DNA of 64,000 nucleotides. It comes from Escherichia coli. Its GTDB lineage: Bacteria; Pseudomonadota; Gammaproteobacteria; Enterobacterales; Enterobacteriaceae. The stretch's first letter is position 1, and each line of letters begins with the position of its first letter. The DNA is taken from assembly GCF_003334315.1 (NCBI RefSeq), contig NZ_QOWR01000003.1; one strand, 5' to 3'. Of the stretch, positions 59,313-60,110 are shown one piece after another. The translations under genes and the position numbers were made by a program. The notes beneath the pieces were generated by a model. The model ran no database searches, had not been told where the DNA came from, and saw only the letters and a list, made by a program, of their open reading frames with translations.

Positions 59313-59352
59313 AACGCCCGATAATATTCTTATTGGGCGTTTTCAGTTTCTT
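59313..59352 (+). terminator. Intrinsic terminator after ddlA (hairpin spans the yaiZ stop codon)
   Basis: AACGCCC-N15-GGGCGTT hairpin followed by TTCAGTTTCTTC. Confidence 0.55.
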
Positions 59353-59542
59353 CATCGCGACGACGAATAATCAACCCCGCCAGCCAGAAACTAATCACCC
59401 ACGTCACCAGACCGACGGCATAGGTCTGCCAACCTTTTGCTTCAAATCCCAGTAACCCCACCACGCCATTAAGAATGAATATAAGGCCAATGGCGAACGC
59501 ATAGTAGTGCCAGTCACGGCGGATTTTTACAGGCAGATTCAT
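59330..59542 (-). CDS. yaiZ: Small membrane protein YaiZ
   Basis: 70-aa product MNLPVKIRRDWHYYAFAIGLIFILNGVVGLLG... from ATG (rc of 59540-59542); two predicted TM helices. Confidence 0.8.
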   Translation of the reverse strand: MNLPVKIRRDWHYYAFAIGLIFILNGVVGLLGFEAKGWQTYAVGLVTWVISFWLAGLIIRRRDEETENAQ

Positions 59543-59801
59543 GGCAGCTCCGTTAACGAAAAACAACATCCTTGCATATTCTGTAACAACCGTCTGTGGT
59601 GTAGACAACATTTTCGTAATTGTTAATAAATTTAACTTAAGGTTGCCATTTTGTGACTCACAACGAAGATTCACGCTTCGGGAATATTCCCAACATCAAT
59701 TTACCATGATTCTGATATTGACAATCTAAATGACCTGTCAGACTTGCCATAAGCCGCTGGTATCACACCAGAAGAGAAGCAGATGACTTCCGGAGGTTTT
59801 T

Positions 59802-60110
59802 ATGGCTGATTTCACCCTGTCAAAATCGCTGTTTAGCGGAAAATATCGCAATGCCTCTTCAACGCCTGGCAACATTGCCTATGCGTTGTTTGTGCTGTTT
59901 TGCTTTTGGGCTGGGGCGCAATTGCTGAACCTGTTAGTGCATGCGCCCGGCGTCTATGAGCGTTTAATGCAGGTCCAGGAAACAGGTCGCCCACGGGTGG
60001 AAATTGGTTTAGGTGTCGGCACCATTTTCGGGCTGATCCCGTTTTTAGTAGGCTGCCTCATTTTTGCAGTGGTGGCGCTATGGCTGCACTGGCGACATCG
60101 CCGCCAGTAA
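59802..60110 (+). CDS. yaiY: Inner membrane protein YaiY
   Basis: 102-aa ORF with GGAGGT SD; hydrophobic helices. Confidence 0.88.

Follow-up and report, generated by a model that had tools for sequence, protein, structure and literature searches.

The small inner-membrane proteins AcrZ, MgtS, KdpF, PmrR and MgrB, which serve known partners as accessory or regulatory subunits, are mostly shorter than 50 aa and consist of a single helix. The products of yaiY and yaiZ, two genes located in the 64,000-nucleotide stretch of Escherichia coli DNA analyzed here (the window), appear by analogy to resemble them in being small, helical and transmembrane, and in the stress-regulated expression of yaiY, but they have two helices each and are longer (102 and 70 aa, respectively). 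The closest regulatory counterparts of yaiY are the Rcs-1 genes (rprA, osmC, bdm and osmB), which are activated by an RcsB homodimer and carry its box by the -35 position. The published RcsB box is TN(G/A)GAN4TC(T/C)NA (PMC7913699). Like these genes, yaiY is strongly induced by every Rcs-activating stress examined, its upstream region includes a 14-bp pseudo-palindrome that fits the RcsB box at 13 of 14 positions, and its product, as for many members of the group, is an envelope protein without an assigned function. Unlike them, yaiY has a C at position 1 of the box, both the RcsB site and the transcription start are predictions from sequence, and the promoter overlaps a weak divergent promoter of yaiZ and carries additional invariant blocks.

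The yaiZ gene (59330-59542, minus strand; ATG at 59542, TAA at 59332-59330) encodes a 70-aa protein of the DUF2754 family, and yaiY (59802-60110, plus strand) encodes a 102-aa protein of the DUF2755 family. The first-pass annotation had described two small hydrophobic proteins of these lengths, transcribed divergently from a 259-bp region with ddlA on one side and yaiW-sbmA on the other. Its coordinates and lengths are correct, the proteins correspond to the annotated genes yaiZ and yaiY, and both indeed lack an assigned biochemical function. The divergent spacer (59543-59801) measures exactly 259 bp. Convergent with yaiZ is ddlA (58212-59306, plus strand), a 364-aa ORF annotated in E. coli genomes as D-alanine--D-alanine ligase A. 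On the other side, yaiW (60169-61263, minus strand), identified from its ORF and the E. coli annotation as the gene of a surface-exposed outer-membrane lipoprotein, is convergent with yaiY and is followed by sbmA (61276 to 62496 or 62502, minus strand), which was placed from the ORF list and the MG1655 annotation. The convergent genes yaiY and yaiW are separated at their 3' ends by a REP-type palindrome (60120-60152), which forms a stable hairpin on both strands. A structured-RNA search of the spacer and its flanks returned only a sub-threshold naRNA4/REP match, at 60086-60152 in this same yaiY-yaiW gap.

Both yaiZ and yaiY are real protein-coding genes that had been catalogued earlier. YaiZ aligns over residues 1-70 with the entire Pfam model of DUF2754 (1-70 of 70; E = 6.6e-49), and residues 1-101 of YaiY align with the entire model of DUF2755 (1-100 of 100; E = 3.2e-49); the NCBIfam models gave no match to either protein. 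The dN/dS values (0.03-0.08 for yaiZ, 0.05-0.14 for yaiY) are similar to those of ddlA and sbmA. Of 5426 complete E. coli genomes, 5420 contain the locus at a query coverage of at least 80%. Within Enterobacteriaceae, synteny extends over more than 25 genera, represented by 80 species loci. All 224 homologue clusters of DUF2754 derive from this family. A set of 1.84 billion proteins contains only 61 DUF2755 representatives, and those that carry a name are all from Enterobacteriaceae; no homologues of YaiZ or YaiY were found outside this family. Shine-Dalgarno sequences precede both genes: GGAG for yaiZ (59548-59551, minus strand), in columns more than 90% conserved in 78 species, and GGAGG for yaiY (59792-59796, plus strand), also in conserved columns. 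A longer, 114-aa reading of yaiZ from a GTG at 59674 was rejected, since the Pfam model and the conservation across genera both start at the ATG at 59542. In the locus labeled 'C. koseri' NCTC10786 (L063), correlated decay of yaiZ, yaiY, yaiW and sbmA was observed; further genes there are also split, so that the decay may reflect assembly errors, and it was set aside as a biological signal.

In terms of structure, YaiZ and YaiY are each modeled as a two-helix hairpin of the inner membrane with both ends in the cytoplasm. Topology prediction, a check that the first-pass annotation had proposed, yielded two membrane helices in each protein in the AF2 models, and in both cases the spanning helices are flanked by positive charges. 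The YaiZ model (pLDDT 77) comprises helices 5-30 and 38-68, flanked by KIRR6-9 and RRR60-62 and followed by an acidic C-terminal tail; residues 6-62 are nearly invariant across genera, and the protein is too invariant for a co-evolution signal. The YaiY model (pLDDT 64) comprises helices 21-47, 49-59 and 70-101, in the order flexible N-terminus, first transmembrane helix, conserved short loop helix, second transmembrane helix and basic C-terminus, with the strongest conservation in the first transmembrane helix and the loop. The distribution of charges, six K/R in the termini versus three in the loop, suggests that both ends of YaiY face the cytoplasm. The location in the membrane is an annotation for YaiY but is established for YaiZ: a YaiZ-GFP fusion gave a membrane signal, LacZ/PhoA fusions placed the C-terminus inside, and insertion into the inner membrane was YidC-independent (PMC3225971). 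This published membrane work, like the published placement of yaiY in the Rcs regulon, had been overlooked in the first-pass annotation. Searches for structural relatives were uninformative: the PDB sequence search was empty or gave E = 0.67, and Foldseek of the YaiZ model against the PDB returned only generic helical hairpins (best E 1.3).

The very high conservation of the transmembrane residues of both proteins suggests protein-protein contacts in the membrane, and a heteromeric inner-membrane complex of YaiY and YaiZ, coordinated by the divergent gene arrangement, has to be considered. The divergent pair, with a spacer of 221-284 bp, is found in 78 of the 80 loci, the two hairpins have compatible topologies, and the near-invariant helices of YaiZ are rich in Gly and Trp, which suggests specific helix packing. 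Nevertheless, yaiZ was lost at least three times (loci L023, L081 and L083-85) while yaiY and its promoter were retained, the expression of the two genes is uncoupled, and the proteins share no sequence relationship; paralogy was rejected at an hhalign probability of 0.8%. Such a complex is thus regarded as quite improbable.

The expression data for yaiY are derived from previous publications, in which its induction by Rcs (18- to 50-fold) ranks among the strongest. Overexpression of RcsB raised yaiY 17.9-fold by qRT-PCR, and overexpression of sigma-E raised it 16-fold (PMC2731931); the latter means that another factor, or an indirect route, could account for part of the induction. Colicin M gave log2 values of 3.9-5.2 (PMC3599342), and a LolCDE inhibitor induced yaiY 37- to 50-fold, from an FPKM of 16.6 to 618 and 839 (PMC5105897). 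In the Rcs-1 iModulon, yaiY carries the highest weight of all genes, and the Keio strain deleted for yaiY had a lower ampicillin MIC (PMC13098195). That phenotype comes from one Keio strain, which counts against a protective role, and a different phenotype of the Keio yaiY strain was not complemented and did not recur when the gene was cleanly deleted in MG1655 (PMC10570021).

The same data bear on the functional tie to sbmA-yaiW that had been suggested by the first-pass annotation, i.e., that YaiY and/or YaiZ are accessory parts or modulators of peptide-antibiotic uptake by SbmA-YaiW. Under LolCDE stress, yaiW and sbmA also rise, but modestly (3-4-fold and about 2-fold, respectively, versus 37- to 50-fold for yaiY; PMC5105897), so that the induction magnitudes differ more than 10-fold. 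The gene order ddlA, yaiZ, yaiY, yaiW, sbmA is kept in nearly all of the 80 species loci, and in the most divergent YaiY lineages, in which yaiZ is gone, yaiY still lies directly next to yaiW-sbmA, and the 3' ends overlap over 4 nt. The wider neighborhood (iraP, ddlA and ampH) is equally conserved, however, and the adjacency of yaiY and yaiW therefore carries little information. Moreover, yaiY is convergent with yaiW and lies outside its operon, with the REP element between them. Neither co-transcription nor strict co-occurrence with SbmA-YaiW was found for yaiY and yaiZ, and yaiW is missing in two species that have yaiY, yaiZ and sbmA (L041 and L046). Many bacteria with working SbmA/BacA homologues lack DUF2754 and DUF2755, families found in Enterobacteriaceae only. 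The examined literature mentioning yaiY or yaiZ contained no link to Bac7, microcins or bleomycin. A role of either protein in this uptake system is accordingly considered very unlikely.

The strong Rcs response directs attention to the region upstream of yaiY, where the RcsB-box-like site cGGGAATATTCCCa (59679-59692) constitutes a candidate activator site. Its sole mismatch to the published box is the C instead of T at position 1, a base found in most species. Taken from one sequence alone, the core motif carries no significance (22 matches in the window versus 37 expected by chance). In 63 of the 78 intergenic regions aligned, the core RGA-N4-TCY falls at one common position. Of 72 non-Escherichia species, 59 retain the split GGA/TCC half-sites, which ranks the site fifth among 250 positions (median of the other positions, 1), and the central bases between the half-sites vary. 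The exact core is absent in 13 of the 72 species, including Salmonella arizonae and diarizonae, and the T/A at the outer ends of the RcsB consensus is mostly not matched across species. The site is located 21 nt upstream of a near-invariant core-promoter block, ATTCTGATATTGACAA (59709-59724, plus strand), which is conserved in 69-70 of the 72 non-Escherichia species and in the taxa devoid of yaiZ. In this block, GATATT (59714-59719) is the predicted -10 of yaiY, with a putative start near 59726 (± 2 nt), which corresponds to U00096.3 399409 on the minus strand of MG1655. From that start, the box would be centered at -40.5 (about -41), similar to the -42.5 of rprA. The box and the GATATTGAC block persist with the same spacing in three lineages without yaiZ, including Intestinirhabdus and Apirhabdus, and both therefore belong to yaiY.

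The spacer contains further elements. The reverse complement of 59719-59724, TTGTCA, is a candidate -35 of the distal yaiZ promoter. A second block, CTGTCA(G/A/C)AC (59735-59743, plus strand), is conserved in 56 of 72 species and together with 59720-59724 forms the inverted repeat TGACA-N11-TGTCA. The RcsB model leaves the invariant blocks TTGACAA and CTGTCAnAC unaccounted for. Readings of the invariant blocks as sigma-E, sigma-28 or sigma-54 promoters were rejected upon inspection, as no legal spacer was present. A scan for consensus sigma-70 sites between 59200 and 60300 returned none at its stringency, which indicates that the promoters deviate from the consensus. The 13-bp palindrome TTGTGAcTCACAA (59651-59663) was considered as an operator or CRP site and discarded, since only its TTGTGA half is conserved across genera; this half appears to fit better as the -35 of a weak yaiZ start at 59621.

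The expression of yaiZ itself is weak and proceeds from its own promoters on the minus strand. The main, proximal starts, at 59563 and 59571, precede the ATG by 21 and 29 nt; they were recorded by Cappable-seq at U00096.2 398796 (score 13.2) and 398788 (5.5), and the same two appear in a second, independent data set (Kim 2012). The mapping of window coordinates onto MG1655 at the starts was verified and involves no indels. The upstream start at 59621 (Cappable-seq score 4.7) would be served by a -10 TAAATT and a -35 GTCACA (reverse complement of the conserved TTGTGA, 59651-59656). The distal start at 59691 (score 3.3) is the weakest of the four and falls inside the RcsB-box-like site. The yaiZ gene is not among the genes listed as rising 2-fold or more with the LolCDE inhibitor (PMC5105897), and an Rcs response of yaiZ was thus not seen among the genes listed. 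Among the 5' ends of Kim 2012, none marks a start of yaiY; the one listed, supported by 2 reads, falls inside the ddlA hairpin.

The position of the distal start raises the alternative that GGA-N4-TCC belongs to the distal yaiZ promoter or start region, or is bound by another regulator, and that the Rcs and sigma-E induction of yaiY is indirect. In addition to the yaiZ-strand start inside the element, an extended -10, TGgTAAATT, lies just upstream of that start, and the response of yaiY to sigma-E and the poor agreement at the outer consensus positions would also be compatible with such a reading. It is opposed by the constant spacing between the element and the GATATTGAC block in the three lineages without yaiZ, by the weakness of the distal start, and by the lack, upon inspection, of a sigma-E-type -35/-10 pair with a legal spacer. 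Fixed half-sites with a free center are, moreover, the signature of a dimeric NarL/FixJ-type site and fit the published RcsB box. This alternative is consequently judged unlikely, and recognition of the element by RcsB is retained as the preferred reading. Our literature search found no EMSA or ChIP of RcsB at 59679-59692, and no direct RcsB binding, delta-rcsB or box-mutant experiment on the yaiY promoter.

At the other end of yaiZ, a hairpin common to the 3' ends of ddlA and yaiZ (59313-59341, both strands) has a 12-bp stem and a 5-nt loop at 59325-59329. On the plus strand (-16.1 kcal/mol, z = -4.8) the stem is followed by TTTTCAGTTT and forms an intrinsic terminator of ddlA; on the minus strand (-13.6 kcal/mol, z = -3.3) the yaiZ-side tail, UUAAAAUAUU, is a poor U-tract. 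On the minus strand, yaiZ supplies the 5' arm of the hairpin with its final three codons and its stop codon. The first-pass annotation had correctly put this stop codon in the ddlA terminator hairpin but had misplaced it in the loop: positions 59330-59332 are the first three bases of the 3' arm and adjoin the loop (59325-59329), and the stop would fall within the loop only if the four A-U and one G-U pairs at the top of the stem were ignored. The ends of ddlA and yaiZ, 23 nt apart and sharing one hairpin, are reminiscent of excludons and bidirectional terminators, and ExcludonFinder, applied to E. coli RNA-seq, lists yaiZ-ddlA and yaiW-yaiY as convergent, with overlapping yaiZ-ddlA transcripts. 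In contrast to excludons, regulation of ddlA or yaiZ through the 3' overlap has no support here. In 29 of the 77 species compared, the two stop codons share a 4-nt overlap, and the ddlA-yaiZ spacing ranges from -4 to +204 nt among species; the exact overlap of hairpin and stop codon seen here is therefore not conserved.

Taken together, the explanation that we favor, and hold to be probable though far from assured, is that yaiZ and yaiY are unrelated genes, confined to Enterobacteriaceae, that encode separately regulated membrane hairpins, and that yaiY is directly activated by RcsB and protects the envelope. The existence of the two genes, their membrane hairpins, the Rcs induction of yaiY and the conserved footprint are shown, and direct binding of RcsB, the start of yaiY and the protection are inferred. 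Without stress, yaiY is nearly silent, and it is strongly switched on when the Rcs phosphorelay senses damage to the outer membrane, lipoproteins or peptidoglycan. The most likely mechanism is that phosphorylated RcsB binds cGGGAATATTCCCa, abutting the position of the missing -35, and brings RNA polymerase to the GATATT -10 block, so that transcription would begin near 59726. YaiY would then enter the inner membrane, where its conserved first helix and periplasmic loop would most likely contact a partner protein or lipid, and this contact may allow the envelope to tolerate damage such as beta-lactam attack. The yaiZ gene is transcribed at a low level from its own starts (59563/59571, 59621 and 59691). 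In a bolder and rather unlikely extension of the proposal, YaiY would be a directly RcsB-activated effector of the inner membrane whose conserved first helix and periplasmic loop engage a cell-wall or envelope machine or the Rcs sensors themselves and confer fast protection of the beta-lactam type, and RcsB bound at its site would act as a roadblock to the distal yaiZ promoter, creating a switch flipped by stress.

With both genes annotated and the control of yaiY by Rcs already in print, the finding is known and ordinary. The addition made here is the phylogenetic footprint of an RcsB-box-like site and a putative core-promoter block upstream of yaiY. The predicted promoter anatomy (59679-59692, 59709-59724 and a start near 59726) provides precise targets for mutagenesis to address the question of direct activation. 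In practical terms, yaiY ranks with the most responsive reporters of Rcs activation and may contribute to intrinsic beta-lactam tolerance, and its promoter would provide a compact, Rcs-specific reporter.

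The divergent genes yaiZ and yaiY lie between ddlA (58212-59306, forward strand) and the reverse-strand genes yaiW (60169-61263) and sbmA (61276-62496). Their coordinates confirm the layout proposed in the first-pass annotation: a 70-aa yaiZ (59542 to 59330, reverse strand) and a 102-aa yaiY (59802-60110, forward strand), transcribed from a spacer of exactly 259 bp (59543-59801). Across 59275-60175 the window differs from MG1655 at seven bases, with no indels; six of these fall inside 60112-60152, in the REP-type palindrome separating yaiY and yaiW, and the seventh is in the spacer, at 59584. 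The start of sbmA (62496-62502) is placed by the mechanical ORF list at a GTG two codons upstream (MHMFKSFF) of the ATG annotated in MG1655 (MFKSFF).

Both yaiZ and yaiY are real genes, already catalogued. Their products match Pfam families over the full length (YaiZ, DUF2754, 6.6e-49; YaiY, DUF2755, 3.2e-49), and the 951-bp region occurs at a minimum of 90% identity in 5420 of 5426 complete E. coli genomes, in which both genes are annotated. In one E. coli match (NZ_CP137737.1, pig isolate HNSQ2209) the region is found as two pieces spanning 1727 bp, with an annotated IS1-family transposase beneath, which means that an IS1 has inserted somewhere in its ddlA-yaiW stretch. A species scan, with one genome each, yielded 124 species with YaiY, the best 80 loci of which were analyzed; these cover more than 25 genera of the Enterobacteriaceae, and the order ddlA, yaiZ, yaiY, yaiW, sbmA is almost universal among them. 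Pairwise dN/dS against E. albertii, Citrobacter, Salmonella, Enterobacter, Yokenella and Atlantibacter was 0.03-0.08 for yaiZ and 0.05-0.14 for yaiY, with ddlA and sbmA in the same range, and the Shine-Dalgarno sequences of both small genes are conserved in an alignment of 78 regions. Public gene callers give YaiZ at 90, 103, 110 and 114 aa; the 114-aa version, from a GTG at 59674 (59330-59674, reverse strand), was rejected, as conservation and the Pfam model fit the 70-aa form only. In the locus labelled Citrobacter koseri NCTC10786 (L063, ∼7500-10700), yaiZ, yaiY, yaiW and sbmA appear frameshifted or split beside an intact ddlA; some other genes of that locus are also split, so that faulty assembly may be the cause instead of a joint decay of the four genes.

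Among 5.8 billion proteins the YaiZ and YaiY families form 224 and 251 clusters, respectively, confined to the Enterobacteriaceae; a set of 1.84 billion proteins holds just 61 YaiY representatives, and of those with names the most divergent belong to Apirhabdus, Mangrovibacter and Entomohabitans. The prediction of membrane topology, as proposed earlier, gave two long helices in each AlphaFold model. For YaiZ (pLDDT 77) these are residues 5-30 and 38-68; residues 6-62 are almost invariant between genera (RRDWH.YA..GL..I..G..G..G....WQ....G...W....W..G...RR) and the acidic tail beyond them varies. Published GFP, LacZ and PhoA fusions place YaiZ in the inner membrane with a cytoplasmic C-terminus, and its insertion is YidC-independent, with balanced cytoplasmic charges (PMC3225971). 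In YaiY (pLDDT 64), conservation is poor at the N-terminus and high in the first helix (21-47); a conserved short loop helix (49-59, HAPGVYE.LMQ) and a second helix with a basic end (70-101) follow. YaiY and YaiZ belong to unrelated families (hhalign probability 0.8%), and neither a PDB sequence search nor a fold search of the YaiZ model against the PDB found solved or recognizable structural relatives. In 78 of the 80 best loci yaiZ is divergently upstream of yaiY, at 221-284 bp. Three lineages, Intestinirhabdus alba (L023), Apirhabdus apintestini (L083-L085) and L081, have no yaiZ between ddlA and yaiY and keep yaiY without it. An obligate complex of YaiY and YaiZ is unlikely.

The ddlA terminator (59313-59341) consists of a 12-bp stem, a 5-nt loop and a T-run. 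The yaiZ stop codon had been placed in the loop of this hairpin; it does lie within the hairpin, but its three bases (59330-59332) are those that open the 3' arm, adjoining the loop. Of 77 species, 29 have ddlA and yaiZ stop codons with a 4-nt overlap and 49 have a gap of at most 25 nt; in some Escherichia the gap reaches 204 nt. Tight convergence is thus typical, while the overlap of hairpin and stop codon is itself not conserved. Several Escherichia lineages (L001, L003, L004 and L006) carry a 150-200-bp insertion at this junction (window 59307-59329). At the other end, yaiY converges with yaiW across the REP, which has a sub-threshold Rfam match to naRNA4; divergent taxa show a 4-nt overlap between these two genes. 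ExcludonFinder gives two pairs of overlapping convergent transcripts here, yaiW-yaiY and yaiZ-ddlA.

The first-pass annotation had suggested a tie to the SbmA-YaiW peptide-antibiotic uptake system. No link of YaiY or YaiZ to SbmA-dependent uptake was found beyond adjacency in a generally syntenic region; yaiW is convergent, and is missing in two species that retain yaiY and yaiZ. Co-expression also argues against the tie: under a LolCDE inhibitor, yaiY rose 37- and 50-fold (FPKM 16.6 to 618 and 839), whereas yaiW rose merely 3-4-fold and sbmA ∼2-fold, and yaiZ was not among the listed genes with at least 2-fold induction (PMC5105897). That YaiY and YaiZ belong functionally with SbmA-YaiW is therefore unlikely.

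What had been overlooked is that yaiY is a textbook-strength gene of the Rcs envelope-stress response. By qRT-PCR it is up 17.9-fold on overexpression of RcsB and 16.3-fold on that of sigma-E (PMC2731931), colicin M raises it by log2 3.9-5.2 (PMC3599342), and a 2026 iModulon study gives it the highest weight of any gene in the fast 'Rcs-1' module (PMC13098195). In that study the Keio yaiY deletion had a notably reduced ampicillin MIC; this value needs caution, because a clean MG1655 deletion did not reproduce a different phenotype of that strain, which was not complemented either (PMC10570021).

Alignment of the 78 yaiZ-yaiY regions revealed discrete conserved blocks in the shared control region, the most informative of which is cGGGAATATTCCCa (59679-59692). 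At 13 of 14 positions it agrees with the RcsB box derived from structure, TN(G/A)GAN4TC(T/C)NA (PMC7913699). The core motif by itself has 22 matches in the 64-kb window versus 37 expected by chance, so that a single-sequence match is not significant. Across species, the core RGA-N4-TCY occupies the same aligned place in 63 of 78 regions, 113-124 nt before the yaiY ATG, or in two species as much as 145 nt. The split half-site pattern is kept in 59 of 72 non-Escherichia species, ranking fifth of 250 positions (the median position is kept in one species), with half-sites 88-97% conserved and three of the four central bases free to vary; the exact core is missing in the other 13, including two Salmonella species. 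The near-invariant block CTGATATTGACAA (59709-59724), 21 nt downstream of the site, offers a plausible -10 hexamer (GATATT, 59714-59719) and lacks a usable -35. Given a predicted start near 59726, the candidate box would be centred at -40.5, similar to the -42.5 of the rprA box relative to its annotated 5' end. Box and conserved promoter block (GATATTGAC) persist at unchanged spacing in all three yaiZ-less lineages (Intestinirhabdus, Apirhabdus and L081), so they serve yaiY. No RcsB binding experiment on this site was found in the searchable literature, and the 5' ends of Kim et al. 2012 include no yaiY start of its own, as fits a promoter nearly silent without Rcs activation. A two-read 5' end assigned there to yaiY, at 59337 (forward strand), 465 nt before the gene, maps to the ddlA terminator stem, on its 3' arm, and runs antisense to the yaiZ end; RNA processing or noise is its probable origin.

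The yaiZ gene, which encodes a membrane hairpin, is expressed weakly and independently. In two independent data sets its starts fall at 59563 and 59571, 21 and 29 nt before the ATG, and Cappable-seq adds weaker ones at 59621 and 59691. A conserved TTGTGA block (59651-59656) fits as the -35 element for the start at 59621; the palindrome around it in E. coli is not conserved between genera. The 59691 start, preceded by an extended -10 (TGgTAAATT), lies within the RcsB-box-like site, so bound RcsB could conceivably occlude this minor promoter. Just downstream of the proposed yaiY -10, the invariant blocks TTGACAA and CTGTCAnAC (59735-59743) jointly make an inverted repeat, TGACA-N11-TGTCA (59720-59743), which is kept in over 25 genera and to which neither a sigma factor nor a regulator could be fitted.

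The regulation and first phenotype of yaiY are already published, and the promoter footprint is the sole new element of this analysis. The best-supported mechanism is that RcsB would directly activate the -35-less yaiY promoter via the conserved candidate box, and this activation would in turn yield a small inner-membrane stress protein, YaiY.
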